A stretch of DNA of 64,000 nt, taken from an uncultured Pseudomonadota bacterium (lineage in GTDB: Bacteria; Pseudomonadota; Gammaproteobacteria; Acidiferrobacterales; UBA6901). The position numbers were made by a program, and so were the translations under genes. The DNA lies in contig CAVOQN010000006.1 of assembly GCA_963698375.1 (NCBI GenBank), positions 165,488 through 229,487 on the forward strand, in the 5' to 3' direction. The notes under the pieces were generated by a model. That model ran no database searches and was not told where the DNA came from. It saw only the letters and a program-made list of their open reading frames with translations. Within the stretch, counting starts at the first letter, position 1. Each line of letters opens with the position of its first letter. This document shows positions 3,607 to 50,030 of this stretch, one piece after another.

Positions 3607-3634
3607 TCGCGCGATCTCGGCTTGCTCCGCTTGA

Positions 3635-10068: not shown

Positions 10069-10069
10069 A

Positions 10070-10112: not shown

Positions 10113-10133
10113 TGGAAGCGGTAATGGAGACAA

Positions 10134-11453: not shown

Positions 11454-11456
11454 ACT

Positions 11457-11504
11457 TGGTTATCGGAGTCGGGGGCGTATAAGCTGGTAGTGATCCGGGA
11501 GTGA
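11457..11504 (+). repeat. relic of the Vgb-like gene 3' end (right flank of the PhoX-like gene)
   Basis: Translates WLSESGAYKLVVIRE*, compared with WLPESGADKLVVIRE* at 40987..41030. Confidence 0.6.
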
Positions 11505-11629
11505 AGCTTGGTTGTGGGTGGGAACTGACAAGGCCAGATATTATTCGGTGAAGGGCGGCTCTTTGCCTGACGTTGACAGCAGCGAGCCGGCAACTTATCT
11601 CAATGTGAGCAACAGCCTTGGGAGGAAAC

Positions 11630-32195: not shown

Positions 32196-33158
32196 TCATA
32201 AAAAACTGCTGGAGTGCACCGGCCGGAAGTAGTTGCCAATCGCCGCCACATGGCGGTGATCGGTGCCGCAGCAGCCGCCGATCACGCGCAGTTTCGGCAG
32301 CAACTTGCCAAGCGCGCGGTACGCGTGTCCCAGCTCCACCGGGTTGCCGGCATCGAGGTCGGTGCTTTCGTCGAGTTCGGCATGGCTGCGTTTCGAGGCA
32401 TTGGCGCGCAGCCCGCGAATGCGCTGCGTCCACGCGCCGCCATGTTTCAGCTCGCGCTCGAAGTGCGTGGGGTGCGCGCAGTTGATCATGAAGTAGGCCG
32501 GGTAGCCGCCGGTGTCGGCGTCGGTGCGCTCGATCGCGCGTTGCAGCGTGTCGCCGCTCGGCAGCTTGCCGTCGGTTTCGAGCGTGAACGAAATCACTAC
32601 CGGCATCTGCGCATCGCGCGCCGCCAGCACAATGCCGATCGCCTCCTCGACATAGGTCATGGTGAACGCCGCCACCAGATCGGCGTCGGTCTGCGCGAAG
32701 GTTTCAATCTGCGGCGCGTGGTAGGCGCGCGCCTCTTCCACCGACATGCGCGCATCGACGCGGTAGCCGTCGCCGCGCGGGCCGAGGTTGCCGCTGATCG
32801 GCATCGGTGATTGCGCGGTTTCGAACGCATCGCGGATTTCCAGCATCAGGCCAATCGCCTTGCGGTTGGCGTCGGCCAGCGCGACCGCGTCGTAGCCGAG
32901 TTTGGCCGCCCAGTCCGGGTTGGCGCGCCAGGTGGGAGCTTCCAGTACCAGCCCCATGCCCTGGTCGCGGGCAATGCCGGCATAGCAGCGATAATAATCG
33001 CGCAGCCGTTCGAAACCGGCATCGTCCTTGAGCAGGTCGAAGGACGCGAAATACGGCAGGTCGAGCCCGTCGTGGAAAATCAGTGTGGTTTCGAGGCCGC
33101 CGTCGGTGAGGAACAGCTGGTCGCGAAGTTGTGGGAGATGCTCGCGGTATTTGCTCAT
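32196..33158 (-). CDS. homocysteine S-methyltransferase family protein
   Basis: ORF 32196..33278 trimmed to MSKYREHL. Motifs LFLTDGGLETTLIF and C-terminal GGCCGT. Confidence 0.85.
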   Translation of the reverse strand: MSKYREHLPQLRDQLFLTDGGLETTLIFHDGLDLPYFASFDLLKDDAGFERLRDYYRCYAGIARDQGMGLVLEAPTWRANPDWAAKLGYDAVALADANRKAIGLMLEIRDAFETAQSPMPISGNLGPRGDGYRVDARMSVEEARAYHAPQIETFAQTDADLVAAFTMTYVEEAIGIVLAARDAQMPVVISFTLETDGKLPSGDTLQRAIERTDADTGGYPAYFMINCAHPTHFERELKHGGAWTQRIRGLRANASKRSHAELDESTDLDAGNPVELGHAYRALGKLLPKLRVIGGCCGTDHRHVAAIGNYFRPVHSSSFL

Positions 33159-33216
33159 GACGTTTCTCCGTATTGAGTTGATGGTATTCGGTTTCAGGAA
33201 TGTTCGTTCGCCCGGC

Positions 33217-34011
33217 TCAGCCACTGCGCTGCTGCAGCACCTCCAGTTCCTCGTCTTCGGAACGCGGGCGCGACACATCCTGCCACCGCAGCATGTCGAT
33301 CACCCGCGCCGAGGCCCCGTCGTAGAAGCCGGTTTCGCGCGCGAAGTCCTTCGGGTTGTGGAAGGTGCCGAACAGGATGTCGAACAGCGGCAGGTCGCTG
33401 TAGTTGCGCGCGTGCACGCCGCGCTCGTGGTGCGCGGAGTGGCTTTCCGGACGCTGGATGATGTAGCCCAGCCACCGTGGCGTGCGAATATTGCTGTGCT
33501 GGAACACGCCGAGGAAGGTGGTGGTATAGATCACCAGCACCGTCGCCTCGGGGGTGATGCCGACGATCATCGTGAGGCACAGGCTGCTGAGTGCCGTCCA
33601 GCCGATCATGTCGAGCGGGCTGAACCAGAAGGCGCCGGCCGCATCCAGTCGCTCGGCGCTGTGGTGCATCTGGTGCACGCTGCGCCACAGCCAGGTCGAG
33701 GCGTGCATGCTGCGGTGATAGACCCAGGCACCGGCCTCGTACACCAACAGGCCGGCGAGTGCGCCGCCCCAGGTGCCGAGGGCGGTGAGATCAAACAGCC
33801 GCAGGCCGGCGAGCGCCTCGCCCCACACGAACGGCAGGTACGACGACACCAGGAAAAACACCGCAAACATGGCGATTCCCTTCGCTTGCCAGCCGCGCAC
33901 TTTCGGCAGTTTCCGCGCCGGGGCCACGGTTTCCCACAGCATCAGGCCGCCGATGATGGTAAAGATCACAAGCGAAACGGGGTCGAGGATCAATTGCAAA
34001 AGGGTTGGCAT
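33217..34011 (-). CDS. sterol desaturase / fatty acid hydroxylase family protein
   Basis: Histidine boxes HQMHHS and HSAHHE. TM-rich N-terminus. AAGGAG RBS before ATG 34011. Confidence 0.85.
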   Translation of the reverse strand: MPTLLQLILDPVSLVIFTIIGGLMLWETVAPARKLPKVRGWQAKGIAMFAVFFLVSSYLPFVWGEALAGLRLFDLTALGTWGGALAGLLVYEAGAWVYHRSMHASTWLWRSVHQMHHSAERLDAAGAFWFSPLDMIGWTALSSLCLTMIVGITPEATVLVIYTTTFLGVFQHSNIRTPRWLGYIIQRPESHSAHHERGVHARNYSDLPLFDILFGTFHNPKDFARETGFYDGASARVIDMLRWQDVSRPRSEDEELEVLQQRSG

Positions 34012-34109
34012 GACAGGGCTCCTTGGATAATGATGAACGTGCACGCAGGCTACGCCGCCCGACCCCGGCCCACTAAAGCCAAACACGCCACCAACCGGAC
34101 ATATCAGCC

Positions 34110-35168
34110 ATGCTCAATCCGAATCCGCCTGATTCACCGCCTATTCCGGTCGCGATGCTGGTGTTTCCCGAGACCACGGCCTCGGTGGTGTATGGCATGT
34201 ACGACATGTTCATGTCGGCCGGGCGCGACTGGAGCGTGATTCTCGATGGCCGGCCCGGCCCGCAGCGGATGCAGCCGATGCTGGTGTCCGCGCGTCCCGG
34301 TCCGGTTGCCGTCGGCAACGACGTGTCGATTGCCGTGCACGCAACGTTCGCCGACTGCCCGCCGGTCGAGATCATCTGCGTACCGGAAATGAACCTGCCG
34401 CCCGGCGAACCGTTGGGCGATCGCTTCAAGGCCGAGATCGACTGGCTGCATCGAGCGCCACGCGCAGGGCGCCATTCTCGCCAGCGCCTGCTCGGGCGCC
34501 ATGCTGCTGGCCGAGGCCGGACTGCTCGACGGGCTCGATGCCACCACCCACTGGGCATGGTGCGCCGATGCTGTGCGAGCAGTACCCGAAGGTGAAGGTG
34601 CGCGAACAGCGCGCGCTGGTGGTGAGCGGCGAGGGCCAGCGTCTGGTGATGGCCGGTGGCGGCACCACCTGGCTCGACCTCGCGTTGTATCTCATCGCGC
34701 GCAGCGTCGGCGTCGAAGCCGCGATGCAGGTGGCGCGCATTAACCTCATCGACTGGCACGCCATCGGTCAGCAGCCGTTCGCGCGCCTCGCGCGTTCACG
34801 CCAGGTGGAAGATGCCGTCATCGCCCGCTGCCAGGCGTGGATCGCCGAGCACTACAACGAGCCCAACCCGGTGCACCGCGCTGGTGCGACTCTCGGGCCT
34901 CGCCGAACGTTCGTTCAAGCGCCGCTTCCAGCAGGCCACCGGCATGCCGCCGCTGGAATACGTGCACGCGCTGCGCATCGAGGAAGCCAAACAGATGCTG
35001 GAGGCGGGCGAGGAACCGATCGAGACCATCGCCCTTGAGGTGGGTTACGAAGACGCGGCGTTTTTCAGCCGCCTGTTCAAGCGCAAGGTGGCCTTGAGCC
35101 CGGCGCAGTACCGCAAGCGCTTCGGGGCGCTGCGGCAATCGCTGATGAATCCGCCGTCGCCCGGTTGA
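34110..35168 (+). pseudogene. GlxA-like (DJ-1 domain + AraC HTH) transcriptional regulator with three frameshifts
   Basis: The coding signal passes through four frames: 34110.., HAQGAILASACSGAMLLAEAGLL.., CEQYPKVKV.., ..LSGLAERSFKRRFQQATGMPPLEYV... Breaks are near 34458, 34561 and 34875. Confidence 0.75.
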
Positions 35169-35279
35169 CCTGTCCTCGTGCACGGGTGCTTCGCTTCATT
35201 TGCAGTAGCCCGGGTTTCGGCAGACACTGCAAGGCTTGGTCCGCAACCGCGGAGCAAGCGAGCGAAACGGAGGCCGACC

Positions 35280-36128
35280 ATGAACAAGGTGGAAGCGAAA
35301 GACAAGCAGCACAAGAGCTGGACGCTGGTCGCGCCGGGCTGGGGCAAGTATGACTCGTTGATGCGCGCCTGGAGCGCGCCGGTCACCGAGCGCATGATCG
35401 CGCTGGCCGCCATTCGCGAAGGTTCGCGCGTGCTCGACATCGCCTGCGGCGCCGGCGAGCCGGCGCTGACCGTGGCCGAGAAGGTCGGGCCGACGGGTGC
35501 CGTGCTGGCCACCGACTTCGTCGAGGAAATGGTCGGCTTCGCGCGCTCCAAGGCCCAGGCGCGCGCGCTCACCAACGTCGAGTTCCGCTGTGTCGATGGC
35601 GAAGCGCTCGACGCCACGGGCGGCGCGTTCGACGCCGTGACCATGCGTTGGGGCCTCATGTTTATGCCCGACCCGGTCGCGTGCATGCGCCGCGTGCACG
35701 ACGCGCTCCGGCCCGGCGGCAAGGCGGTGGTGTGCTGCTGGACCGAGGCCGCAGACAACCCGTTCGTCACTGTGCCGCTCGGGGTGCTCAAGCGGCACAT
35801 GGAGGTTCCCCAGCCGCCCGCCGGCGCCCCCGGCATCTTTGCGCTCGCCAGCGCCGACCGGTTACACGAAATCTTTGCCGAAGCCGGGTTTCGCAACGTG
35901 GCCATCGAGCAGGTGACCATCCCGATGGCCGATTTCGCCACCGGTGCCGAGTACGACGAATTCATTCGCGAACTGGCGGGACCGGTGGCCAGCCTGTTTG
36001 TGCAGCTGCCAGCCGAAACACAGGAAGTAGTAAAAAAAGAAATCGCCCGCGATGCCGAGGCCTACAGCGCCACGCCCGGGCGCGTGGTGCTGCATGGCAT
36101 CACCCATGTTGTGGTCGGCACCAAGTAG
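35280..36128 (+). CDS. class I SAM-dependent methyltransferase
   Basis: ORF 35178..36128 trimmed to the ATG after GGAGG. SAM motif VLDIACGAGEP. Confidence 0.85.
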   Translation: MNKVEAKDKQHKSWTLVAPGWGKYDSLMRAWSAPVTERMIALAAIREGSRVLDIACGAGEPALTVAEKVGPTGAVLATDFVEEMVGFARSKAQARALTNVEFRCVDGEALDATGGAFDAVTMRWGLMFMPDPVACMRRVHDALRPGGKAVVCCWTEAADNPFVTVPLGVLKRHMEVPQPPAGAPGIFALASADRLHEIFAEAGFRNVAIEQVTIPMADFATGAEYDEFIRELAGPVASLFVQLPAETQEVVKKEIARDAEAYSATPGRVVLHGITHVVVGTK

Positions 36129-36285: not shown

Positions 36286-37829
36286 TCAGGCCTGGCCCGG
36301 ATCGCCCGGTGATCCCTTGAGCGGTTGGCCGCCCTGCCGGGCACAATCGTCGGCGGGCAGAATCAGGTAGCCCTTGCCCTTGCAGCTGTTCATTCCACCG
36401 CAGGCGTTGCTGGCGGTGGCGCACACGGTCTTGCCCTTGCAGCTGTTGATACCGTAGCAGGCGATCTCGCCGGCCTCGACCTTGGGCGCGTACACATCGA
36501 CGGATTTGTACAGGCCGTAGAAGGCGCCGGCCGCGGCGATGCTCAGGGCGGCGCCGCGGGTGAGTTGCGCCTGGCGCGGGCGCTCGCGCCTGGCCACCGA
36601 GCGGATCATTTCCTCCAGGCACCGGTCCGGTTGCAATGGCAGCCACAGGCAGTACACGCTGGCGGCAAGCAGAACCGCCAGCGGCGCGATGAGTGACCAC
36701 AGCGGCAGGGTCATGGTATTGGTGATCATGAGCCACAGCACGACTGCCGAAATGGCGGCGCTGGCGGTGCCGACCCAGAACGGCGCGAGCCGGTCGCGGC
36801 GGATGCCTTCGCGGTACAAGCCGTAACTCGCAGCCGCGACGGAGGCGACGAATAGCGGGTACATGTAGGCGTGCGTGGCGAAGGCCGCGGCGCCCACCGC
36901 GCCGAACGCGGCGACCAGCAGCGGAATACCCGCGCACACGCCGGCGGCAACCACGGCGCCGGCGAGTGTGAACAGCTGACGCGCCATGACGCTACCACGG
37001 CGACGCCACGAGGATTGTTCATCGATGAACTGCTGCAAGGCGGCGCCGGCCGGCTTGTCCGCTTTCAACACCACGCTGTGGGCGCCGAACAGGCCGGCGA
37101 CCTCGCGTGTCTTGTCGCTGTTGCTGCCGGTAAAGTAATCGAGCTGGTCGACAATTTCGACATTGCCGAAGCCGGCGGCGCGGAACATTTCCAGGTAGCG
37201 GTCTTCGGACACCGCCCGACAACACATTCGGCCCACAGGGCCGGGTCGTTCTGGAACTGCGCGCCAATCGGCTGGCGCAGCGCGATGTCCGCCAGTTGCA
37301 GCCGCCCGCCCGGGCGCAGCACGCGGAAAATTTCCGCCAGCGCGCGCGCCTTGTCGGGCACCAGGTTCAGCACACCGTTGCTGGTGACGACGTCCACCGA
37401 GGCGTCGGGCAGCGGAATGGATTCGGCATTGCCGCCCAGGATCTCGACATTGCGGATGCCGTGTTGATCGAGGATGCCGCGCAGCTTCGTGCGCATCGCC
37501 TCGGTCATGTCGAGCGCATAGACCTTGCCGCGTTCGCCCGCCTGTCGCTGCGCGATCATCACGTCGGTGCCGGAACCCGAGCCGATGTCGAGCACGGTAT
37601 CCCCTTCCCGGATCGCGTCGGCGGCAAAGGGGTAGCCGACACCGGCAAACGATTCCAGCGCCGCCGCCGGCAATCCGGCGAGGACCGTGGCCGGGTAGTG
37701 CACAAACTCGCAGGCCGTGCGGCCGGTGGGGAAATGAAAATCGGACTGTGGCGCGTTCGCGACCTGGGTGTACATCTGCTTCACCGCGCCGAGTATGTGC
37801 TCGCGCTTGTTGCTGGTGATGGCAACCAT
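36286..37829 (-). CDS. ArsM-like SAM methyltransferase fused to a 5-TM domain and a C-terminal 6-Cys (CYGINSCKG...) domain, one frameshift in a G-run
   Basis: ORFs 37065..38030 and 36286..37236 join at ..LWAECVVG/AVSEDRYLEMFRAAGF (C-run fwd 37215-17). Motifs VLDIGSGSG and SNGVLNLVPDK. No stop codon before the TM region. Confidence 0.7.
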
Positions 37830-37903: not shown

Positions 37904-38146
37904 TTAAAACCGTTTGGTCAATTTCCGGATGCGCTGTCGCAGGGCGTCCGGCGCGACGGCGATTTCGGGGGCCTTGATCATCCCGTGCAGGCGCTTGTCG
38001 AACTCCATGCGTGAGAAGCAGGCGCGGCATTTGTGCAGGTGCGCATCAACCGCGGCGTGATCGTTCGGTTCCAGTTCGTTGTCGAGGAACTCGAACAGCA
38101 TGCGGATGGCTTCGTCACAGTTCAGTGTGCGGGGTTCTTTGCTCAT
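37904..38146 (-). CDS. RsrA-type ZAS anti-sigma factor (small, soluble)
   Basis: 80 aa. C10, H36-x3-C40-x2-C43 (HLHKCRAC). ATGA overlap with the sigma gene stop. Confidence 0.85.
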   Translation of the reverse strand: MSKEPRTLNCDEAIRMLFEFLDNELEPNDHAAVDAHLHKCRACFSRMEFDKRLHGMIKAPEIAVAPDALRQRIRKLTKRF

Positions 38147-38793
38147 TGTTCCTCTTTCGGTGGCGCGTCCACCAGCCCCTTGTCGAGGGCGTGTTGCCAT
38201 AGACACTTCTGCATCATGCTGCGCGCCCTGGCCAGGCGCGAGCGCACGGTGCCGACCGGGAGGTCCAGGTTCTCCGCGATCTCGTGGTACTTGAAACCTT
38301 CAACGTCGGCCAGCATCAGCACCACGCGAAAAGATTCGGGCAGGCTGGCGAGCGCCGACTCGATGTCATCATGCAGCAGCCGGTCGAGGAACTGTTGTTC
38401 GGGGTTTCCCCACCACAGTAGCACCGGCTGGTGCAGGCGCTCGAAGATCGAGAACGGCCGGTCATCGCCCTCCGGCTCCTCGATGTATTCCTCGTGCGGT
38501 GTGCGGTTCACGGCCCGGCGCCGCTCGCTGATGAAATGATTGGTCATGATGCGCATCAGCCACGCCCCGATGCGCGTCGGGTCCTGCAGCGTGTCGATAC
38601 TTTTCCACGCATGCTCAACCGTGTCGGCCACCAGGTCTTCGGCGTCGTGCGGATTGCGCGTCAGTCGCCGGGCCTTGCAAAAGAGCTGGCCGAGGTTGGT
38701 GTCGATGTACTGCCCCAGCAGCTCGAGGGAGGGAGTCGGAGAGTTCATCTGCCGAATGATCACCACGTCTGTTTTAAGTGTGATCCCGATCAT
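38143..38793 (-). CDS. ECF (sigma-70 family) RNA polymerase sigma factor
   Basis: Region 2 DAEDLVADTVEHAW and region 4 VGTVRSRLARAR. Start at 38793 (GGAGGG 8 nt upstream). Alternative start ATG 38748. Confidence 0.9.
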   Translation of the reverse strand: MIGITLKTDVVIIRQMNSPTPSLELLGQYIDTNLGQLFCKARRLTRNPHDAEDLVADTVEHAWKSIDTLQDPTRIGAWLMRIMTNHFISERRRAVNRTPHEEYIEEPEGDDRPFSIFERLHQPVLLWWGNPEQQFLDRLLHDDIESALASLPESFRVVLMLADVEGFKYHEIAENLDLPVGTVRSRLARARSMMQKCLWQHALDKGLVDAPPKEEQ

Positions 38794-38880
38794 ACACGAA
38801 CCCTCCGGCTTCCCGGGGCACGGGCCGCCGCGGGGGAGCAAGTGTAGTCGGAATGCGGTGTTTTCCTGTTCATAAGGGGC

Positions 38881-38909
38881 AAGACGCAAACCCCCGGCAA
38901 ATGGTTCCC
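38881..38909 (-). promoter_or_regulatory. candidate ECF promoter GGGAAC-N17-CGTCTT (sigma operon)
   Basis: The motif recurs at 38955, 58192 and 58732. Confidence 0.55.
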
Positions 38910-38954: not shown

Positions 38955-38984
38955 GGGAACTCTTTCGCGGGCGTGTTGCGTCAT
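38955..38984 (+). promoter_or_regulatory. candidate ECF promoter GGGAAC-N18-CGTCAT (divergent methyltransferase)
   Basis: Lies 67 nt upstream of ATG 39051. Confidence 0.5.
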
Positions 38985-39050: not shown

Positions 39051-39854
39051 ATGAGCCTGACCTGCCCAGTTAATTTTGACGTGGACTACCTGCGCCAGCA
39101 GGTGGAAATTGAATACGACCGCGTGGCCCGCGAGCCGCATGGCGAGTTTCACTTTCACCGTGGTGCGGAATACGCCCATCGCTACCTCAACTATTCGCGC
39201 GAGGACCTGAGCCTTGTGCCGACCGTAGCCAGCGACCGTTTCGCCGGGGTCGGCAACCCGCACCGGGTCGGGCCGATTTATCCCGGCGAAGTGGTGCTGG
39301 ATCATGCCTGCGGTGCCGGCATGGACCTGATCATTGCCGCGCACCACGTTGGCCCGCGCGGCCGGGTGATCGGCGTGGACATGACACGTTCCATGCGCGA
39401 GAAAGCGGCCGAGGGCGTGCGACTCGCCGGTGTGGCCGACCGCACCCAGATCCTCGACGGGCTCTATGAGCAGCTGCCATTGGAAGACAACAGCGTGGAT
39501 GTCGTGATCTCGAACGGTGTCATCAACCTGGCGCCCGACAAGACCCAGGTGTTCAGCGAGATCAACCGGGTCCTGCGCCCGGGTGGCCGGGTGTTCATCT
39601 CCGACGTGGTGATCGCGCACGAGCTGAAGGTCGAAACGCGCAGCAATCCCGATATCTGGGCGGCCTGCATCGGCGGCGCGTTGCAGGAGCATGAGCTGGT
39701 CGAACTGGCCCTCGGCGCCGGCATGAAGAATGCGCGCATCACCGAGCACTTCGACTGCTTCCGCGACACCCCGGCGGAGCGCAAGGTGGCCAAGGCGCTG
39801 AACGTGCACGGCGTGAATTTCTTCGCCAACAAGGCCTATCAGGTGTATCAATAG
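39051..39854 (+). CDS. ArsM-like SAM-dependent methyltransferase
   Basis: Motifs VLDHACGAGMD, SNGVINLAPDK and IWAACIGGAL. GGAGGA RBS. Confidence 0.85.
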   Translation: MSLTCPVNFDVDYLRQQVEIEYDRVAREPHGEFHFHRGAEYAHRYLNYSREDLSLVPTVASDRFAGVGNPHRVGPIYPGEVVLDHACGAGMDLIIAAHHVGPRGRVIGVDMTRSMREKAAEGVRLAGVADRTQILDGLYEQLPLEDNSVDVVISNGVINLAPDKTQVFSEINRVLRPGGRVFISDVVIAHELKVETRSNPDIWAACIGGALQEHELVELALGAGMKNARITEHFDCFRDTPAERKVAKALNVHGVNFFANKAYQVYQ

Positions 39855-40071: not shown

Positions 40072-41030
40072 ATGCGCAAGGAAACCCGGGCTTTACTGGC
40101 CGTCCTGCTGCTCGTTACCAGCACGCTGTGCGCCGCGTTCGAAATCAAGGAATACCCGGTTCCGAAAGGCGCGCACCCGCACGATGTCGCGCCGGCCGCC
40201 GATGGCGGCGTGTGGTACACCGCCCAGCATCAGGGCGCGCTCGGGTATCTCGACCCGAAAACCGGCAAGACCCGCCACATCCCGCTCGGCAATGGTTCCC
40301 GTCCACATGGGGTTATCGTGGGGCCGGATGGCGCCGCGTGGATCACCGATTCCGGTCTCAACGCCAATCGTGCGCGTCGACCCGAAAACCGACAAGGTCG
40401 AAGTCTTCCCGCTGCCCAAGGGCACGCCGAACGTCAACCTCAACACCGCCACGTTCGATAACGCCGGCATCCTGTGGTTCACCGGCCAGAACGGTTACTA
40501 CGGCAGCTTCGATCCCAAAACCAAAAATAACCAAGGTGTTCGAGGCCCCGCAAGGCCGCGGGCCGTATGGCATCTGCACCGCGCCGGATGGCAGCGTGTA
40601 TTACGCCTCGCTCGCCGGCAGCCACATCGCGCGCATCGATACCAAAACCGGCAAGGCCACGGTCATCGAGCCGCCCACGCCGTACCAGGGCGCGCGCCGC
40701 GTGTGGGCGGATTCACAAAACCGAATCTGGGTCAGCGAATGGATCTCCGGCCAGGTGTCGCTGTACGACCCGAAAACAAAAAAATGGAAAGAATGGAAAG
40801 CCCCGGGCGACAACCCGCAGGTGTATGCGGTGTACGTGGACAACAAGGACATTGTCTGGCTGTCGGATTTCGGCGCCAACGCCATGCTGCGCTTCGACCC
40901 GAAGACCGAAAAGTTCACCGTGATCCCGAGCAAGAGCGGCAACGCGCGCGTGCGCCAGATTCTCGGCCGGCCCGGCGAGGTGTGGTTGCCGGAGTCGGGG
41001 GCGGATAAGTTGGTGGTGATACGGGAGTGA
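40072..41030 (+). pseudogene. Vgb (streptogramin lyase)-like beta-propeller protein with two homopolymer frameshifts
   Basis: Three ORF segments (40072.., 40184.., 40128..41030) read through as FEIKEYPVPKGAHPHDVAPAADGGVWYT...IVRVDPKT...KITKVFEAPQGRGPYGI... Breaks at AA 40366-67 and A5 40523-27. Confidence 0.75.
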
Positions 41031-41811: not shown

Positions 41812-42002
41812 GACAACAAGGTTTTCGTCTAGATGTCGGATTTCGGCGCGAATGCCATGCTGCGCTTCGACCCGAAGACCGAAAAGTTCACCGTGATCCC
41901 GAGCAAGAGCGGTAACGCGCGCGCGCCAGATTCTCGGCCGGCCCGGCGAGGTGTGGTTACCGGAGTCGGGGGGCGAATAGGTTGGTGGTGGTGAGGGAGT
42001 GA
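41812..42002 (+). repeat. degenerate duplicate of the Vgb-like gene 3' end
   Basis: Aligns base for base with 40839..41030 apart from a few substitutions, a 2-nt deletion and a premature TAG. Confidence 0.8.
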
Positions 42003-42138
42003 CTGATAGTTTTGAATCTATTATTTCGAATGGCGTAACAAAGTATTACAGAGCTTTCGGGCCACTTGACTGCCTCACCGTACTTTACCATTATGAACCG
42101 AAGTATCCCAAAGGACTAAAGATCTTCCATGTACGTCT

Positions 42139-42585
42139 ATGACAATGAAACAGGCTGAAGGCAACACGGCGATGAAGTGTCTCGCACCCCTTGTCGGGAT
42201 ATTTTCCGGATCGATGCTTGGCTGGGCACTGTTTTTTCTATCGCCGGATTTCGCATCGGAAAAAATCACTGTGGGCGATATTTGCGCGCGACTATATGGC
42301 TTGGCATTCGGATTTTATGGTTGGGGTATTGCCATTGTTATCGGCCAAAACAAGAGTCTTTTTTGCGGTGGCTTCAATGAGTTTATGAGTGAAGATCGTT
42401 TAAGGATAAGCGGGCTTGCAGTGGTTTCTGTCGTGCTTCTCATAGTAGATGCGGGTTTGTTAGTGAAAGGCCACTACGAGATTTATTCAGTAATCTGGGT
42501 TATTTTGATGTTTGGATTTCTCGGCGAGGTTGGCTGGGCAAATCCGTTATATATACCTAAAAAGTTTATCGACTTTTTTATTTGA
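42139..42585 (+). CDS. hypothetical membrane protein (AT-rich)
   Basis: 148-aa ORF with about 4 hydrophobic segments. I recognise no family. Confidence 0.55.
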   Translation: MTMKQAEGNTAMKCLAPLVGIFSGSMLGWALFFLSPDFASEKITVGDICARLYGLAFGFYGWGIAIVIGQNKSLFCGGFNEFMSEDRLRISGLAVVSVVLLIVDAGLLVKGHYEIYSVIWVILMFGFLGEVGWANPLYIPKKFIDFFI

Positions 42586-42624
42586 GTGAATGACTGTGTT
42601 TGTCTGGAAAACGGATACTGTCTT

Positions 42625-43077
42625 ATGAAAAAGATGATTATTGCCAAACGCAACGCACGTGTACTCGGTCTGGTTGTCGGTATCATGTGGCTGACCACGT
42701 GCCTAACCTCAATGCTTTTGGTTCTAGATTTAATTCTAAGCCGAAGTGTGACCATTTATGGTTTGGTTTACCCATTGGTCTTGGCCTCGTGCGTGATAGC
42801 AGGTTTTGTCGGCGCTACCGTATTGTCGAAGCTGCTTGCGTCGTTATTTACGGTTCCCAGCGCACCAAGTGTCCGGACTATTTCTTCACCGAATAAGTAC
42901 ACTCTCGCCGGAAGTCCGGCAGCCTTTTGTTCGATAGTAGCTATTGCAGTGATTGCACCGGTTCATTTCGTTGGCGGTGTGGCGTTATCTTCCGATACGA
43001 CATCCGCCCCTATTTACCTCAGTGATGACACACAGGCAACTCCTAGCCCATCGGAAGTAAAAAATTTCGGTAATTAA
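42625..43077 (+). CDS. hypothetical membrane protein (AT-rich)
   Basis: ORF 42586..43077 trimmed to MKKMIIAKRN. Hydrophobic segments are present. Confidence 0.55.
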   Translation: MKKMIIAKRNARVLGLVVGIMWLTTCLTSMLLVLDLILSRSVTIYGLVYPLVLASCVIAGFVGATVLSKLLASLFTVPSAPSVRTISSPNKYTLAGSPAAFCSIVAIAVIAPVHFVGGVALSSDTTSAPIYLSDDTQATPSPSEVKNFGN

Positions 43078-43096
43078 TCTGAGCGCTACTTAAAAC

Positions 43097-43513
43097 ATGT
43101 CAAACGATAAAAAATATCCATCGGTTATTTGGTCCATCCTTGCGGATGACGTCAGACAGGAAACGGGCTCCAAGATATCCATCATTGGCGCTTATACTGG
43201 CAACGATATAACAGTTACGCCAACACAGCAGTTGCCGACAGGTCAATCGATTGGATTTCCGTTGACAGTATTGTATGTATTCGAAGGTGTCGAAGGTGAG
43301 CACGAAGCGCGGCTAAACATCTTCGATCCATTAGGTAAAGCAGTTGGGAATGGAGTTCTGAAGTTTAATCCGGGCAAGGTGAGTACTGTTAACGCGATAT
43401 TTAAGTTACCAAATTTTGTTGTATCTGAGTCTGGTCAATATACCGCCAAACTTTCATTTGGTGATCAAAAACCATACGAATTCAAGTTCAAGGTTAAAAT
43501 CGCACAAGCGTAA
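43097..43513 (+). CDS. hypothetical soluble protein (AT-rich)
   Basis: 138-aa ORF with beta-rich composition. I recognise no family. Confidence 0.6.
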   Translation: MSNDKKYPSVIWSILADDVRQETGSKISIIGAYTGNDITVTPTQQLPTGQSIGFPLTVLYVFEGVEGEHEARLNIFDPLGKAVGNGVLKFNPGKVSTVNAIFKLPNFVVSESGQYTAKLSFGDQKPYEFKFKVKIAQA

Positions 43514-43516
43514 GAA

Positions 43517-43661
43517 TTAAAGGGGTCAGTACCCTTTTAGCCTCGCAGTACCGCAGAATCCAGTCAGATTGAACGGCCACGCCATTTCATTGCACGTGCT
43601 GTAACAACGCCTGTTCGACCTCGTCCAGCGAAAACTTGCCCACCTCGACAACCGTGGCCCG
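43517..43661. repeat. 145-nt direct repeat, copy 1 (contains the 3' end of a lost minus-strand gene)
   Basis: About 90% identical to 44794..44939. The minus strand reads ..ATVVEVGKFSLDEVEQALLQHVQ*. Confidence 0.8.
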
Positions 43662-43668
43662 CAACTAT

Positions 43669-43742
43669 GGGGTCAGGTCTTGCAAGTTAACTTCCACTAA
43701 AATCAAATCATGGCGCAAATTGATTGCTCAAGACCTGACCCC
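43669..43742. repeat. palindromic repeat, GGGGTCAGGTCTTG family
   Basis: GGGGTCAGGTCTTG-N46-CAAGACCTGACCCC. Confidence 0.75.
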
Positions 43743-43816
43743 GTTTCACAGCGGAGTTGGTTTCTCGGACAATGTGAACGATTGCGGATCAAAGCTGCCT
43801 GCGAAGGAGATAACGC

Positions 43817-44797
43817 ATGAAAGCAGTTGTGTATGAGAAATACGGGCCGCCCGAGGTTCTTCAAATTCGGGAGGTTGAAAAGCCCGTACCCAAGGACAAT
43901 GAAGTCCTGATAAAAACACATGCGACAACGGTTACATCCGGGGACTGGAGGGTGCGGAGTCTCAATGTGCCTGTCGGCTTCGGGCTCATCACGCGTTTGG
44001 TATTTGGAATTACAAGACCAAGGCAACCCATACTCGGGACAGAGCTGGCGGGTGTCGTTGAATCGGTCGGCAACCATGTAAGCAAATTCAAGGTCGGTGA
44101 CCAGGTTTTTGCGTTCAGCGATGCCGCCATGGGTTGTTATGCGGAGTACAAATGCATGCCACAAGACGGGGCGATGGCATTAAAACCGGCCAACCTGACC
44201 TTTGACGAAGCCGCCGCCATCTCGTTTGGCGGCACAACGGCATTGAATTTCCTCAGGAGAGGAAAACTTCAGCGCGGAGAAAGCGTACTCGTCATTGGGG
44301 CGTCCGGCGGGGTAGGCACCGCAGTGGTGCAGCTTGCCAGGCACTTCGGCGCCGACGTGACCGGGGTGTGCAGTAGCGCGAACGTGGAATTGGTGAGGTC
44401 ACTGGGCGCCCGTCATGTTATCGACTACACCAAAGAAGACTTCACGCAGAATGGCAAAACCTATGACATCATTGTCGATACCGCCGGCACGGCGCCGTTC
44501 TCCCGCAGCAAGGCTTCATTAAAGGCAGGCGGCCGCCTGCTACTGGTTCTGGCTGGGCTGCCAGACATGCTTCTGATTCCATGGGGGGCAATGACAAGCA
44601 ACAAGAAGATCATCGCCGGGCCAGCGTCCGGACGCGCGGAAGATCTGCGTTTTCTCGCGAGTCTGGCTGAGACCGGTGAATTCAAACCTGTCATTGATCG
44701 GCGCTATCCGTTTGAGCAGATCGCCGAGGCACACCGCTACGTCGATTCCGGACGCAAGAGGGGAAACGTCGTCATCACGCTGAAACATGACAATTAA
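43817..44797 (+). CDS. NADPH:quinone oxidoreductase / zinc-type alcohol dehydrogenase (MDR) family protein
   Basis: MKAVVYEKYGPPEVL..., GASGGVGTAVVQLA Rossmann motif, AAGGAGA RBS. Confidence 0.9.
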   Translation: MKAVVYEKYGPPEVLQIREVEKPVPKDNEVLIKTHATTVTSGDWRVRSLNVPVGFGLITRLVFGITRPRQPILGTELAGVVESVGNHVSKFKVGDQVFAFSDAAMGCYAEYKCMPQDGAMALKPANLTFDEAAAISFGGTTALNFLRRGKLQRGESVLVIGASGGVGTAVVQLARHFGADVTGVCSSANVELVRSLGARHVIDYTKEDFTQNGKTYDIIVDTAGTAPFSRSKASLKAGGRLLLVLAGLPDMLLIPWGAMTSNKKIIAGPASGRAEDLRFLASLAETGEFKPVIDRRYPFEQIAEAHRYVDSGRKRGNVVITLKHDN

Positions 44798-45987: not shown

Positions 45988-46023
45988 GGGGTCGGAGTGA
46001 TTTAACTTTAATCACTCCGACCC
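45988..46023. repeat. hairpin repeat, GGGGnCGGAG family (possible bidirectional terminator)
   Basis: GGGGTCGGAGTGATT-TAACTTT-AATCACTCCGACCC flanked by A-rich and T-rich runs. Lies between convergent genes. Confidence 0.75.
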
Positions 46024-46053
46024 TTATTAACTTTTTAAACTTGCGTTCGATCC

Positions 46054-46491
46054 TTACGGCTTCAGGTAGGCGTACTTTTCCTTGACCTGGAGTCGCGTGA
46101 CCTCACGGACGCCGGAGGGCACGAGCTTGATGACCGACAGAAACTTCTTCGGGTCGAGGTTTCTGCGTTTCAGGGTGATTTCGCAGACGCGGAATTCCAC
46201 ACCCTTGGACGCCAGCTTTTCCACGGGAATGCTGTAGGGATTACCTTTCTTGTCTTCCGTGCCTTCCATCAGGAAATCGACCCCGCTGGAGTGAGTGACC
46301 ACGACGATCTTTGCATTCGGTTCGACTTCCAGATGGTTGCTGATGTTGCGCAACGCGTCCGAAGCCTGCTCATTGCCGAGGTTCACGTGATAAAGCACCT
46401 TCTCCACGTCGCTGTCGGCAGCCATCGCCATGCCCGAAATTGCAATAGCACCGATCGCACCGGCGATCAGAAATACTTTACGAATACCCAT
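46054..46491 (-). CDS. periplasmic DsrE/DsrF-like (COG1416-type) protein
   Basis: Signal peptide. Motifs KVLYHVN...IVVVTHSSGV...GVEFRVCEITL...VPSGVREVTRLQ..YAYLKP. Confidence 0.75.
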   Translation of the reverse strand: MGIRKVFLIAGAIGAIAISGMAMAADSDVEKVLYHVNLGNEQASDALRNISNHLEVEPNAKIVVVTHSSGVDFLMEGTEDKKGNPYSIPVEKLASKGVEFRVCEITLKRRNLDPKKFLSVIKLVPSGVREVTRLQVKEKYAYLKP

Positions 46492-46837
46492 AGTCCAGCT
46501 CCTCGTTGGTGGTTGTTGGGAATCAAATCCCGTTGTTCCGAAGGGAACATGAGGGAGACGGGCGCGAAGGGGCTAATATTTCAGAAGAATTATTACTTAT
46601 AACGATTAATACCATTGATGGTATCGGGATGCGAGGCAAGCCAAACCGTGCCGCTATCCGGATGCTCCGAAAGGAGGGGAAAGATTGATTTTCTGCACCA
46701 AACGATGAAAGTGGACGCTAATTCAAGGTGTCAGGAGTTAGAATTATAAAGAGTCGTAGTGATGTATCGTTAATCACTCCGACCCTTTTAATTCGACGCT
46801 TTAATCGTTTGCTATTAACGTTTTTCCACTTTTCCTT

Positions 46838-47749
46838 ATGACTAAAATAAACGCGATGCGGGTTTTGTTTTCAGTTGTTTGTTTGAGCATGGTGGCTTTA
46901 AGCGCGCAGGCGGCGGAACCCATTCGCCACTACGCTGGCCCATTGTTTGATGCCCATTTGCATTACAACGCCGAGGCGGGTGATGGCCAGACTGACCCGT
47001 TTCCGCTCCCGGATGTGTTGGCGCGCATGCAGCGCAATGGCGTGCGCGGCATCCTTGCCAACTCGCGCCCGAATGATGGCACGCTGGCGCTCGCCGCAAC
47101 GCCGCTCGCGCGAAAAGCAAATGTGCAGGTGGTTCCTTTTGTGCGCCTCTATCGTAACCAGGCGGATTACGACAGCTGGTTCGGCGATGAGTCTATTTAC
47201 CAGATGGTGCAAACTGAATTGGCACGTGGCACGGGAGCCGGGCCATTCAGGGGTTTGGGCGAATTTCATCTTTACGACAGCGCCAACGCCAATGGCGTGG
47301 TGGTGAAAAAAATAATGGCGTTGGCGGAGGAAAAGAATCTGGTGCTGCTCGCACATGTGGACGATGTGGCGATTGACCTATTAATGGCCAGCACCGTGTC
47401 GCGCGGCCAGAAAGTCCGCCTGATCTGGGCGCACACCGGTATTGACGGCGCACCTGTAGCACGAGTGGAGGAGTTGCTGGTCAAGTACCCGTTGCTCATG
47501 GGGGAGTTGTCCTACCGGCCGGGGCTGGCTTGCGGCGATTTCAATTTTTGCCCCGAGTGGCGCGCCTTGTTCATCAAATACCCCGGCCGCTTCCTGATCG
47601 GTTCGGACACCTGGAACAATCAACGTTGGCTGAGTTATGACGACCTTATCAAGCGTTACCGCATCCTGCTGGCGGATTTACCTGCCGATGTGGCGCGACG
47701 CATCGGATGGTTGAATGGCAAGGAGTTGTTTGGGCTGTCGGAGCCTTGA
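46838..47749 (+). CDS. secreted metal-dependent amidohydrolase (TIM-barrel) family protein
   Basis: Signal peptide. FDAHLHYN metal-binding motif. HVDD and IWAHTG segments. Confidence 0.7.
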
Positions 47750-47897
47750 TTTTTTAAATGCGAGCTAAAACCACGAAAATCGGGTCAGACCACAGTTTCT
47801 TAAGGTATCTGTAATATAAGGGGACGGCGGGATTGCTGTTCGTGGTTAAGCTGATCAACACCAGACCTTATGTGCTTATAGATTTATAGGAGTAAAA

Positions 47898-48242
47898 ATG
47901 AGATTTTCAATTATTATTTTACTAATAATGTTTTTAGGCGGCTGCGCATCAGGATTAGAAAAGTTGCGTAATGTAAATTCTGGTATGACGCCGAATGAAG
48001 TAGATCAAATTATGGGAAACAGGGATGATTTCAGTACTATAGAAAAAAATGGTGATACATTCACCCTCTATAAATACACAAATCGATTTTGCAATTCTCA
48101 CGTCGACATAAAAGATAAATGTGATTACTTTGTCGTATTTAAAAACGATAAGGTAACTGAAACGGGTATAAAAAATATAGGCGCCAACAAACCGAGTCTG
48201 GAATATACGAATATGAAATATATTAATCTTTTTCAGAAATAA
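47898..48242 (+). CDS. small lipoprotein (AT-rich), BamE/SmpA-like motif
   Basis: Lipobox FLGGC. GMTPNEVDQIMG. Confidence 0.65.
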   Translation: MRFSIIILLIMFLGGCASGLEKLRNVNSGMTPNEVDQIMGNRDDFSTIEKNGDTFTLYKYTNRFCNSHVDIKDKCDYFVVFKNDKVTETGIKNIGANKPSLEYTNMKYINLFQK

Positions 48243-48298
48243 ACTATTGCGTAACAAGTCGCCCGTTGGGACGCTTTGCCGCGATGCGGCTAATAAAA

Positions 48299-48331
48299 GG
48301 GGACGGAGGGATTAAAGTTTAATTCCTCCGT
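48299..48331. repeat. hairpin repeat, GGGGnCGGAG family
   Basis: GGGGACGGAGGGATTAAAGTTTAATTCCTCCGT. Confidence 0.7.
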
Positions 48332-48387
48332 TTTGTGAATTCATTAAGTTTCTCCGGCCTTTTTGTTACCCCGTGCTTGTGCTGTTC

Positions 48388-49242
48388 TCAGCTGCGGGGG
48401 ACGGTTTGTTTACGTGCGTGCTGCAACTCCAGTTCAAGCAACATGTCTTTTTCCAGATTCTTTAAATAACCCGGGTTCGTATTGTGGTAGCCGTTAAGAA
48501 AGGCGATGCGGACTTTATTGTCCGGTAGCGACAGGATTTCGACACGGTACTCGATTTCCTTGCGTGTGTAGCTTCCAGTGCTCCGACCTGGTTCGCTTTT
48601 CAATACGGTCCAACCACGCTTTAACAGGGCAATATTCGCCACTTGTTGCAGGGTGGCGGGTGTGGCATTGAACTTCTCCACATTGAGCGTAACGTATTCA
48701 ACAAACAGGGCCGGTTCATCCACCGCCTTTTTGGCCACAGGCTTTACTGCACCGGGCGTACCCGTGTTTGATTGGGGCGTTGGCAGTGTCGGAATTGTTT
48801 TGGCCAGGTAGTCGGCCATGGCTATCATGTCGGGATCGCTACGGGGGCTTATGGTAAATCTTTCGACGGCTTCCTGCGCTGTGAGTTTAGCGTTATTCCG
48901 AATTCGGAAATCAGCGCCGTTCCTGAGTAAAATTGCCGCCACCGGCCGGTGCATGTAGACGCCCGCCAGATGCAGGGCGGTATCCCCATTGTTGTCCTGA
49001 AGATTGAGGTCGGCCCCGGCCTGGACCAATTCCTCGACGGCGTTCTGTTTTCCATAGCGTGCCGCAATCATCAAGGCACTGCGGCCGATATCGTAGCGCT
49101 TGTTGATGTCCGCGCCGGTGCTGAGTTGCGCACGCAGCGCTCCCACATTGCCTTTTTTGGCAGCCTCATCCAGGGTCGGCGCGGCGTGTACTACCGGTAC
49201 CAGCAGTGAGATATTCAAAAAAAATATGATATAGCGAAACAT
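48388..49242 (-). CDS. secreted ankyrin-repeat protein with unknown C-terminal domain
   Basis: Signal peptide. Three to four ANK repeats (GRSALMIAARYGKQNAVEELVQAGADLN, NGDTALHLA). Confidence 0.8.
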   Translation of the reverse strand: MFRYIIFFLNISLLVPVVHAAPTLDEAAKKGNVGALRAQLSTGADINKRYDIGRSALMIAARYGKQNAVEELVQAGADLNLQDNNGDTALHLAGVYMHRPVAAILLRNGADFRIRNNAKLTAQEAVERFTISPRSDPDMIAMADYLAKTIPTLPTPQSNTGTPGAVKPVAKKAVDEPALFVEYVTLNVEKFNATPATLQQVANIALLKRGWTVLKSEPGRSTGSYTRKEIEYRVEILSLPDNKVRIAFLNGYHNTNPGYLKNLEKDMLLELELQHARKQTVPRS

Positions 49243-49479
49243 GGATTCTCCAGATGTAACAGACCGGTGAGTATGCAGAAATAGTAAGCGTTCCTTTCAG
49301 GAAAAACCACGCGTGCTCAATCGACGTCGTTTCTTGCTCACAACTATGCAAGAATCTGTGTCAAATATTCAGGGTCAGAGTCAAAACTGCGCACTTCTGT
49401 ACAATTAGTTAAAGGGAACGCAGTGATTTAGGTTTGATCCCCCTATCTCCGTACCACCACCGACACACGAGGACCACCC

Positions 49480-49944
49480 ATGGATATCCAACGACTTGCC
49501 GTTCTCCTTTCCATTTGTTTTGCCGTAACCGCTTCTGTTGTCGTGGCCGACGATGTCCCGGGCATCAAGGACGGCGACCGGTTGACACAGGACGTTGCCG
49601 GCAAAGTCGCTGACATCTCCACCCCGGACTTGCAGCGCGCGATCGAGAAGATTCCGGACCTGGTGCTGATCGACATCCGCATGCCGAGCGAAATCGAGTC
49701 CATGGGCGGCGCCATCAAGGCGCCGCAGAACGTCAACATCCCGCGCGGCTGGCTTGAATTCCGCGTTACCAACACTGCCCGGAGCAAGGACACGCCCATC
49801 GTCGTGTACTGCGGCGGCAACATTCGCAGCGTTCTGGCCGCCCACACGCTACAGCAGATGGGCTACACCAACGTGAAGAACTACGCCGACGGTTTCTTCG
49901 GCTGGAAGCAGAAGGGGTTGCCGGTCAAACAGCAAGACAAATAG
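49480..49944 (+). CDS. secreted rhodanese-domain sulfurtransferase
   Basis: Signal peptide. Active-site loop VVYCGGNIRS. Confidence 0.85.
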   Translation: MDIQRLAVLLSICFAVTASVVVADDVPGIKDGDRLTQDVAGKVADISTPDLQRAIEKIPDLVLIDIRMPSEIESMGGAIKAPQNVNIPRGWLEFRVTNTARSKDTPIVVYCGGNIRSVLAAHTLQQMGYTNVKNYADGFFGWKQKGLPVKQQDK

Positions 49945-50030
49945 GGTCAGTGAGCATTTGTTGCTTGTAAGAGGGAAATTGGTGTCGGAAGGATCAGTAC
50001 CCAATTATTCGTTGCGAGTTGGACTGTAAA

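Follow-up and report, generated by a model that had tools for sequence, protein, structure and literature searches.

In this study we analysed 64,000 nucleotides (nt) of contig CAVOQN010000006.1 from an uncultured Pseudomonadota bacterium, hereafter called the window, and in it a gene on the minus strand at positions 36286-37829. We concluded that this gene is a copy, interrupted by a 1-nt deletion, of a rare protein predicted to place three modules at the inner membrane: a methyltransferase, a MerC-type membrane domain with a fifth helix, and a BufA2-type cysteine-rich domain (the fusion). Its parts, with lengths in amino acids (aa), are the following.

36286-37829, minus strand: whole fusion gene, encoding an ArsM-like methyltransferase, a MerC-like part of four transmembrane (TM) helices, TM5 and a BufA2-type domain; 514 aa after a one-base repair
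37066-37829, minus strand: ArsM-like class I S-adenosylmethionine (SAM) methyltransferase domain, aa 1-255, predicted cytoplasmic; assigned by Pfam, NCBIfam and alignment to ArsM structures
37215-37217, minus strand: frame break; the Gly205 codon has lost 1 nt within a short G run of the coding strand (CCC, coding GGG)
36970-37065, minus strand: linker, aa 256-287, with the Arg-rich end WRRRGSVMARQ; from alignment
36640-36969, minus strand: divergent MerC-family four-helix domain, aa 288-397; from phmmer matches to PF03203-carrying proteins
36556-36639, minus strand: cytoplasmic Arg-rich loop with 7 Arg and the invariant Cys404 (DRCLEEM)
36508-36555, minus strand: TM5, a signal-anchor helix; its homologue in free BufA2 precursors is the Sec signal peptide
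36289-36507, minus strand: BufA2/BUF_6/12Cys-type domain, predicted periplasmic, with C458, C464, C470, C477, C483 and C496 and a GGxPLKGSPxDP tail

The pairing of MerC with a bufferin domain is already known, as MerC|Buf1 and MerC|Buf2 chimaeras were reported from mercury-detoxification clusters in a survey of MNIO clusters (Microb Genom 2025, PMC12452194). What appears to be new is the N-terminal methyltransferase fused to MerC|Buf2, the absence of MNIO/DUF2063 genes at the window and at every related methyltransferase-fused locus examined, and the conserved SigR/RsrA-like operon with twin promoters of the extracytoplasmic function (ECF) type, under whose control a paralogous methyltransferase and, at other loci, a DsrE-like gene are placed as well. 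The word "methyltransferase" is not used in PMC12452194 and the triple fusion is not described there; the literature on MerC, ArsM and bufferins gave reviews only, again with no description of the triple fusion. The original prediction had supposed that a covalent link between a methyltransferase and such a cysteine-rich domain was undescribed, which stands for the methyltransferase and falls for the MerC–bufferin link.

The gene is read in two frames on the minus strand. In the list of open reading frames (ORFs) frame A starts with the ATG at 37829 and reads MVAITSNKREH…NDPALWAECVVG, and frame B continues …AVSEDRYLEMFRAAGF… without a stop codon down to the one at 36286-36288. It had been proposed that a single indel parts the methyltransferase from the section with five TM helices and six cysteines, and the repair by one base indeed gave a product of 514 aa matching intact orthologues. 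DNA alignment with the orthologues at loci L003-L006 (L and P numbers denote related loci and proteins) placed the break in the Gly205 codon, which is exactly one base short, GG- in the window vs GGC, GGT or GGG. The GC content at third codon positions (GC3) was 0.81 and 0.84 in the two halves, a strong coding signal on both sides of the break, and the GC3 phase changed at approx. 37100-37200, coinciding with the junction.

The fusion gene was collinear with intact orthologues in L005 (79% identity), L006 (70%), L010 (44%) and P0032. A Sulfuricaulis metagenome-assembled genome (MAG) encodes an uninterrupted orthologue of 514 aa (WP_368429407.1, 79% identical), the complete chromosome CP070641.1 encodes one of 516 aa (70% identical), and Burkholderiales MAGs carry P0032 with 511 aa. 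At 90% identity the Sulfuricaulis protein falls in a cluster of 22 members, mostly of 514 aa, from NCBI, JGI, ENA and Logan assemblies. Altogether the repaired 514-aa product is collinear with intact orthologues of 511-516 aa from >30 independent assemblies, thus the same fusion does occur in other genomes, and no split versions were found among the related loci examined. A profile search of 1.84 billion 50%-identity representatives returned only two proteins >500 aa, so the fusion is rare.

We regard the frame break in the window as probably a sequencing or assembly error rather than true decay, because the 310 codons downstream of it are free of stops and all conserved residues, including the cysteines, are kept. 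A single base missing from a G run in a stretch with a GC content of 0.65-0.67 is typical for residual indel errors of long-read assemblies, and the neighbouring sigma and anti-sigma genes, the paralogous methyltransferase gene MT2 and both promoters are undamaged. If the break were real, which seems doubtful, the gene would be a pseudogene in a decaying stretch of the source organism and no fused protein would be produced; at most a truncated methyltransferase would be made, perhaps with MerC|Buf2 from Met282 or a BufA2-like product from the ATG at 36607-36609. The deletion is present in the given sequence, and two adjoining genes are frame-broken too. The AraC/DJ-1 (GlxA-like) regulator gene at 34110-35168 (plus strand) carries three separate 1-nt insertions, near 34453, 34564 and 34873, as seen by reference to its orthologue in L006 (83% identical), none of them in a homopolymer. 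The Vgb-lyase/NHL-like beta-propeller gene at 40072-41030 (plus strand), which has a signal peptide, is spread over three frames with two shifts. Long ORFs in the rest of the window (up to 1093 aa) are unbroken, thus the breaks cluster locally, and they fall in the window's most GC-rich stretch. Independent decay at the 3' end in relatives (L003 keeps a remnant and P0065 a tail, both out of frame) also speaks for a real break. Since the break of the fusion gene lies in a G run and the AraC insertions lie outside homopolymers, the pattern settles neither error nor decay. A real break would bear on expression in the source organism only and would leave the identity of the protein family unaffected.

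The joined ORF could also be thought of as two or three separate genes (methyltransferase, merC, bufA2) merged by assembly or by the repair. The window does need a one-base repair, and an internal ATG behind GGAGGAA stands ahead of the BufA2-like part. We consider this reading effectively refuted by the intact orthologues, as judged from unbroken ORFs of 511-516 aa with the same architecture in the independent NCBI, JGI, ENA and Logan assemblies. The modules are never separated by a stop codon in any intact orthologue, and internal Met residues are poorly kept in the alignment of relatives. A programmed frameshift was ruled out, every orthologue being read through in a single frame.

The methyltransferase domain was matched by Pfam Methyltransf_31/11/25 at E 1e-27 to 1e-19 (Methyltransf_31 1.5e-27) and contains the SAM-binding motif VLDIGSGSGTD of the class I fold. 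The ArsM structures 5evj (CrArsM) and 4fr0 (CmArsM) were its best structural-sequence relatives (E 8e-27). With these and AS3MT it shares the SAM-binding fold and the third arsenite-binding cysteine (C224 in CmArsM numbering), retained as Cys202 in WAECVVGA of the common form WAEC(V/L)xGA. It differs from them in the other two arsenite-binding cysteines: C72 is replaced by Val (FAGVGYP) and C174 by Gly (SNGVLNL, SNCVINL in ArsM), and the same two replacements were found in all fused members and in MT2. To the NCBIfam arsenite methyltransferase model PRK11873 the fused domain scored 202.1 bits and MT2 196 bits, below the cut-off of 263. An arsenite methyltransferase with one Cys is known, TtArsM (PMC8649762), thus As(III) stays a possible substrate of the fused enzyme. 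By their described mode of working we also compared MddH/MddM, the S-methyltransferases of H2S and methanethiol (MeSH), which are likewise class I SAM enzymes and detoxify small thiophilic molecules. They include membrane-tethered members and members induced by oxidative stress, and MddH adjoins metal-resistance genes; they are, however, classed as UbiE/UbiG and not ArsM-like, and none is fused to a MerC or bufferin domain.

Following the linker, in which Met282 aligns with the start of the stand-alone MerC|Buf2 proteins, the C-terminal 233 aa aligned over full length with PF03203-carrying proteins of ~232 aa at 42-49% identity (phmmer E 3e-57 to 1e-44). Among 28 aligned family members MerC models were matched by 24 in Pfam and by 21 in NCBIfam, which argues for homology over the four helices. 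The window domain alone did not reach the cut-off of 27.6 bits of Pfam MerC PF03203 (11.7 bits, E=0.41), nor did it match the NCBIfam MerC models (PRK13755, NF033784) at E<=0.001; for P0032, a methyltransferase-fused member, a weak PF03203 match is on record. Five helices had been noted in the original prediction and are present, but helices 1-4 had not been recognised as MerC family nor helix 5 as the counterpart of the BufA2 signal peptide. The motifs it quoted, AGVCAGIP, SVYCLWL, REGIRRDR and RSVARRERPRQ, were all found together with the C-terminal six-cysteine stretch.

The cysteines of the membrane part set the fused proteins apart. In TM1 of the fused members a single invariant Cys (Cys299) stands where stand-alone relatives carry CC, and the loop after TM4 has one invariant Cys, in xC[L/I] (Cys404), instead of the CxC/CxxxxC pair of the stand-alone proteins. 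The cysteine pairs of MerC, in TM1 and in the cytoplasmic tail, are thus not preserved across the methyltransferase-fused members. The TM1 cysteine pair of MerT/MerC is thought to be necessary for Hg(II) transport. Cys202, the TM1 Cys and the loop Cys were invariant in 12 methyltransferase-fused members (44-79% identity). Emphasis had earlier been laid on a cysteine in TM4; this residue, Cys394, is variable and replaced by Ser, Asp, Glu or Val in relatives. Compared with MerC of the Tn21 type (PF03203), the window domain is alike in its four hydrophobic helices, in the TM1 Cys followed by Pro and in the Arg-rich cytoplasmic loop, and its closest relatives match both PF03203 and the NCBIfam MerC models. 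The differences lie in its score below the family cut-off, in single cysteines for pairs and in the lack of a mer operon: no match to MerT or MerA was obtained in the window by tblastn, and the neighbouring genes are unrelated.

Both the N- and the C-terminus of MerC are cytoplasmic, so the addition of a fifth helix puts the C-terminal cysteine-rich domain outside, and we predict it to be periplasmic. The distribution of charges agreed with the positive-inside topology proposed before, with 4+4+7 Arg/Lys (total 15) in the loops assigned to the cytoplasmic side vs 0+0 in the short periplasmic ones. An AlphaFold2 model of the MerC|Buf2 part, based on the 28-sequence alignment, had five membrane helices and a short cytoplasmic helix with a mean predicted local distance difference test score (pLDDT) of 68, rising to ~86-94 for helices TM2-4. 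Five TM segments and a periplasmic bufferin domain were likewise predicted for MerC fusions (PMC12452194).

The C-terminal domain passed the NCBIfam BufA2 model NF050166 (cut-off 60) with 73.8 bits (E=9e-21) for the isolated C-terminus, 70.3 for the 233-aa part and 69.0 for the whole protein. The alignment spans profile positions 2-77 of 79 and residues 427-502; because it begins at profile position 2, TM5 corresponds to the Sec signal peptide of BufA2. Free BufA2 proteins of ~88-95 aa align at positions ~140-225 of the family profile. NF050166 was matched by 28/28 members of the 28-sequence alignment (A3), in which all six Buf2 cysteines are invariant and FYGxYKSV is nearly so; among the fused members the six cysteines are invariant wherever the domain is present. 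The earlier description of the domain as bufferin-like therefore stood and its assignment to the DUF2282/BufA1 family was rejected, as no Pfam DUF2282 match was obtained at E<=1, whether the query was the full protein, its 233-aa part or the C-terminal 96 aa. The domain is not a small free precursor with a cleavable Sec signal peptide, being the C-terminus of a 514-aa polytopic protein with TM5 internal, and no AxA-type cleavage site after TM5 was seen on reading the sequence by eye.

The Buf2 domain was absent or decayed in 5/12 fused members (L003, P0003, L011, L012 and P0067), which implies that it is not essential to the methyltransferase–MerC role. L011, L012 and P0067 stop directly after TM5 and P0003 a few residues later; in L003 (~4000-4080) an out-of-frame bufferin remnant, ACYGVNACGG, is followed by a stop. 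P0065 ends in an Arg/Pro-rich out-of-frame tail in place of the bufferin coding sequence. Together L003 and P0065 suggest repeated decay, or repeated indel errors, at the GC-rich 3' end. We also observed that the internal in-frame ATG at 36607-36609 (minus strand, Met408) is preceded by GGAGGAA with a short Shine-Dalgarno-like spacing of 2 nt. Translation from it would yield a BufA2-like precursor of 107 aa with a signal-peptide-like N-terminus; Met408 is kept in close relatives only.

BufA2 of Caulobacter vibrioides is a free Sec-exported peptide of ~90 aa that chelates copper (PNAS 2024, PMC11626156); its four central cysteines are turned into thiooxazoles by BufB, an MNIO, together with BufC, and for BufA1 the signal peptide was found dispensable for modification (PMC11626156). 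The window domain resembles it in passing the NCBIfam BufA2 model, in six cysteines within a core of ~60 residues after a hydrophobic export helix, and in control by an ECF sigma factor. It differs in ending a 514-aa polytopic protein, in having no modifying enzymes nearby, and in its SigR/RsrA-like sigma system vs SigF/NrsF. The same 514-aa protein is named "BufA2 family periplasmic bufferin-type metallophore" (RefSeq WP_368429407.1, UniRef) and, by other sources, "arsenite methyltransferase". According to the family scores and cysteine comparisons given above, neither name fits this polytopic enzyme.

We searched for MNIO and DUF2063 genes at 11 methyltransferase-fused loci, covering the whole 64-kb window and up to 10 kb on each side elsewhere. 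For the window, two MNIO and two BufC sequences served as tblastn queries and reached only E>=1, in line with the original prediction for MNIO, and nothing was found by tblastn at L003-L006 and L010-L012 nor among the called genes of L090-L093. The adjacent MNIO (PF05114) and DUF2063/HvfC (PF09836) genes of bufferin precursors are thus missing here. Since none lies nearby, the cysteines of the bufferin domain in the fusion probably act unmodified, as thiolates or disulfides, instead of being converted to thiooxazoles.

The stand-alone MerC|Buf2 genes were found in a different setting. In L001, L002, L008 and L009 they follow a MerA-like gene and are directly followed by MNIO (PF05114) and DUF2063 (PF09836) genes; MerR is close by in L008/L009, and in L007 MerR is present and MNIO absent. 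The window protein shares with the published chimaeras (PMC12452194, e.g. OOO01496.1) the four MerC-type TM helices, the fifth helix and the predicted periplasmic six-Cys Buf2, together with the full-length identity given above. It differs from them in the methyltransferase and linker of 280 aa ahead of the MerC part, in the single cysteines replacing CC of TM1 and CxxxxC of the loop, and in its surroundings, as MerR/MerA and MNIO/DUF2063 are lacking in the window and the regulator is a pair of ECF sigma and zinc-binding anti-sigma (ZAS) factors. As a side observation, L001 (a contig of a Thermoanaerobaculia MAG) holds two bufferin systems, at 1549-3834 (minus strand) and 10001-12299 (plus strand), within a mer-type island with MerT, HMA, MerA-like and CsoR-type repressor genes. 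One comprises a canonical 150-aa Buf2 precursor with 12 Cys and the other a MerC|Buf2 chimaera, each with its own MNIO and DUF2063. A Vgb-lyase-like gene, as at 40072-41030 in the window, also adjoins the stand-alone MerC|Buf2–MNIO cluster in L001/L002.

The fusion is the third gene of an operon, behind an ECF sigma factor and an RsrA-like zinc anti-sigma factor. The features of this region are the following.

37904-38146, minus strand: RsrA-like ZAS anti-sigma factor of 80 aa, cytoplasmic, with HxxxCxxC (HLHKCRAC) and no hydrophobic segment; Pfam zf-HC2 at 1.8e-9
38143-38889, minus strand: ECF sigma factor, Pfam Sigma70_r2/r4_2; listed as an ORF of 248 aa with a TTG start at 38889
38883-38909, minus strand: ECF-type promoter, GGGAACC-N14-TTGCGTC, directed towards sigma, anti-sigma and fusion
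38955-38982, plus strand: twin ECF-type promoter, GGGAACT-N15-TTGCGTC, directed towards MT2
39051-39854, plus strand: MT2, soluble, 267 aa, paralogous to the fused methyltransferase; motifs FAGVGNP, SNGVINL and WAACIGGA

The anti-sigma gene overlaps the end of the sigma gene, and as a short soluble HxxxCxxC protein encoded after an ECF sigma factor it forms a ZAS pair with it. The listed sigma ORF begins within the promoter; its true start is probably at ~38787, because orthologues are 199-214 aa long. The best NCBIfam matches were SigH_actino TIGR02947 for the sigma factor (124.4 bits, cut-off 251.6) and RsrA TIGR03988 for the anti-sigma factor (51.7 bits, cut-off 62.5), both below the cut-offs. 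The system is thus comparable to SigR–RsrA of actinomycetes in its best matches (SigH/SigR-type and RsrA) and in having a small cytoplasmic anti-sigma factor with C...HxxxCxxC and an autoregulated ECF sigma factor. It differs in the sub-threshold scores, in its proteobacterial hosts, and in a regulon of methyltransferases and a DsrE-like protein rather than thioredoxin or mycothiol genes.

The motif GGGAAC-N15-18-GCGTC has two matches in 64 kb (0.28 expected by chance), both in the divergent intergenic region between the sigma and MT2 genes. The promoter blocks are conserved across four aligned loci, both promoters having the form GGAAC-N16/17-GCGTC, GGAAC(C/T)nTTT…TTGCGTC, and the operon promoter was found in the equivalent place in L003, L005, L006, L010, L042 and L090-93. 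At every fused locus an ECF sigma factor and then an 80-aa soluble HxxxCxxC anti-sigma factor are encoded directly upstream of the fusion. All four genes, with MT2, co-occur in the window, L003, L005, L006, L010, L012 and L090-L093, and MT2 stands beside the operon in L003, L005, L006, L010, L012, L042, L090 and L091. The cysteine pattern of MT2 matches that of the fused methyltransferase.

This promoter motif recurs in related loci ahead of the sigma, MT2 and DsrE-like genes. The DsrE-like gene encodes 125 aa with a C-terminal GICPPCG (a CPPC protein), and the motif lies directly upstream of it in L003 (4189-4215), L005 (11212-11238), L090 (~11651) and L091 (~3831); motif and gene also occur in L034, L043 and L057. 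From these sequences the DsrE-like gene is likely a member of the regulon. The sole DsrE-family gene of the window, at 46054-46491, lacks the promoter motif.

In ~30 metagenome loci the sigma and ZAS anti-sigma genes are accompanied by an unfused methyltransferase 55-64% identical to the fused methyltransferase domain. The unfused regulon loci, among L013-L062, L072 and L079, are soil and sediment contigs without a MerC or bufferin part. In L042 the divergent module is likewise complete; its methyltransferase, of 262 aa, is unfused, and no MerC-like gene follows downstream. In the literature we found no description of the ECF/ZAS/methyltransferase genomic context. The set looks like a widespread orphan regulon. 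Because of the ~30 unfused loci and the full divergent module of L042, the MerC|Buf2 part seems to have joined an older soluble regulon at a later time, and this part may have come from the known MerC|Buf2 chimaeras of mer/MNIO clusters.

Beside the operon there are further genes for a homocysteine S-methyltransferase, for a protein of the fatty-acid-hydroxylase family and for a third SAM methyltransferase (32196-33161 minus strand, 33217-34086 minus strand, 35178-36128 plus strand). Homocysteine S-methyltransferase and AraC/DJ-1 genes are neighbours both in the window and in L006, where in addition an FCSD-like flavoprotein gene adjoins the fusion gene. L092/L093 encode a Lactamase_B+Rhodanese fusion of persulfide-dioxygenase type, and FA_hydroxylase and two further methyltransferases downstream of the fusion. 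HMA and P-type ATPase genes come after the fusion gene in L004. The wider context of L010 consists of ABC transporter, globin and MFS transporter genes, and only the four-gene module is common with other loci. In the window the GC content falls to 0.46-0.51 at 42001-44000 and 46001-50000 vs ~0.60-0.67 around the locus. These stretches may be of foreign or mosaic origin; among their genes are ones for an NYN domain, DUF6941, ankyrin repeats, DsrE and rhodanese.

Taking the invariant cysteines as a plausible path (the six periplasmic ones, Cys299, Cys404 and Cys202), we favour a reading in which a thiophilic substrate would be captured, relayed along cysteines and methylated with SAM; we give this reading an even chance, split about equally between soft metal(loid)s and reactive sulfur or selenium. 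The anti-sigma factor belongs to a thiol- or zinc-sensing type; we therefore expect thiol-reactive stress to inactivate it and thereby to switch the regulon on. The periplasmic cysteine-rich domain would then capture the substrate, the MerC-like domain would pass it via Cys299 in TM1 and then Cys404 in the cytoplasmic loop to Cys202 of the tethered methyltransferase, and there it would be methylated; MT2 may serve the cytoplasmic pool or later methylation steps. A soft metal(loid) is the most likely substrate, in keeping with what MerC and bufferins are known to do, with the ArsM-like fold and with the HMA and P-type ATPase genes in L004, and reactive sulfur or selenium species are nearly as likely. 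Several observations weigh against the capture and relay reading. Neighbours and regulon members (DsrE, persulfide-dioxygenase/rhodanese, FCSD-like flavoprotein) suggest sulfur as much as metals. The methyltransferase lacks two of the three ArsM arsenite-binding cysteines and stays below the NCBIfam ArsM cut-off, the TM1 cysteine pair is reduced to one Cys in a domain that by itself scores below the Pfam MerC threshold, 5/12 fused members have lost the Buf2 domain or keep it in decayed form, and this domain was modelled with low confidence (pLDDT <50). Moreover, an MNIO gene may exist elsewhere in the host genomes, and the gene is frame-broken in the window, so the protein may not be made here. 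A narrower form of the reading, in which MNIO-independent bufferin capture and a MerC-derived single-Cys relay deliver a soft metal(loid) to be methylated on arrival, coupled to its import, we propose only tentatively; its extreme case, SAM-dependent mercury methylation independent of HgcAB, is very improbable.

The regulon might instead handle reactive sulfur or selenium and not metals, both enzymes S- or Se-methylating sulfide, persulfide, methanethiol or selenide in an Mdd-like manner, with the MerC|Buf2 part as a membrane anchor or as a periplasmic or membrane acceptor of thiols or persulfides. We rate this as rather unlikely. The DsrE-like CPPC gene under the same ECF promoter in L003, L005, L090 and L091, and adjacent in several unfused loci, is in line with it, as are the Lactamase_B+Rhodanese fusion of L092/L093, the FCSD-like flavoprotein of L006, the homocysteine S-methyltransferase neighbour in the window and L006, the sulfur oxidiser Sulfuricaulis among the hosts and the SigR/RsrA-like regulators. 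Class I UbiE-type SAM methyltransferases that act on H2S and MeSH and are induced by oxidative stress are documented as well (PMC11445057, PMC12904073). On the other side, MerC (Hg) and bufferins (Cu) have so far been tied to metals only (PMC12452194, PMC11626156), the models nearest to the methyltransferase are those of ArsM rather than UbiE, and the HMA and P-type ATPase genes of L004 also count against this reading. It is also conceivable, if improbable, that the protein is the precursor of a peptide made by ribosomes and modified after translation (RiPP): MNIO/DUF2063 enzymes encoded at a distance would form thiooxazoles on four central cysteines and a cut after TM5 would free a bufferin-2 copper metallophore, the methyltransferase being an unrelated passenger or a methylator of the peptide before export. 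Passing of the BufA2 equivalog model, the alignment of TM5 with the BufA2 signal peptide and the MNIO and DUF2063 genes immediately downstream of stand-alone MerC|Buf2 genes would agree with such a precursor. Sizeable fractions of bufferin precursors are genetically unlinked to an MNIO gene (PMC12452194), and modification of BufA1 does not need the signal peptide (PMC11626156). What argues against it is that MNIO/DUF2063 was found neither in the window nor at the 10 other methyltransferase-fused loci, that the by-eye reading gave no AxA-type site after TM5, that the methyltransferase–MerC–TM5 part was kept in the five members that lost Buf2, and that a ZAS pair drives the regulon, in contrast to the SigF/NrsF copper system known from Caulobacter.

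Few clues to function that can be drawn from sequence alone are as strong as a domain fusion. Here a methyltransferase without an assigned substrate is joined to two modules known only for thiophilic metals, behind a thiol-stress switch, and the fusion exposes an annotation problem in that one 514-aa protein bears the names of a BufA2 metallophore and of an arsenite methyltransferase. If capture, relay and methylation by the fused protein hold true, this would be a new route of metal(loid) or chalcogen biomethylation, and bufferin domains could act without maturation by an MNIO. The import-coupled form, if true, would give metal(loid) biomethylation its first example of a transporter fused to a methyltransferase. 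The same reading would give the widespread unfused regulon of sigma factor, ZAS anti-sigma factor and ArsM-like methyltransferase in soil bacteria a function in the form of a testable hypothesis.

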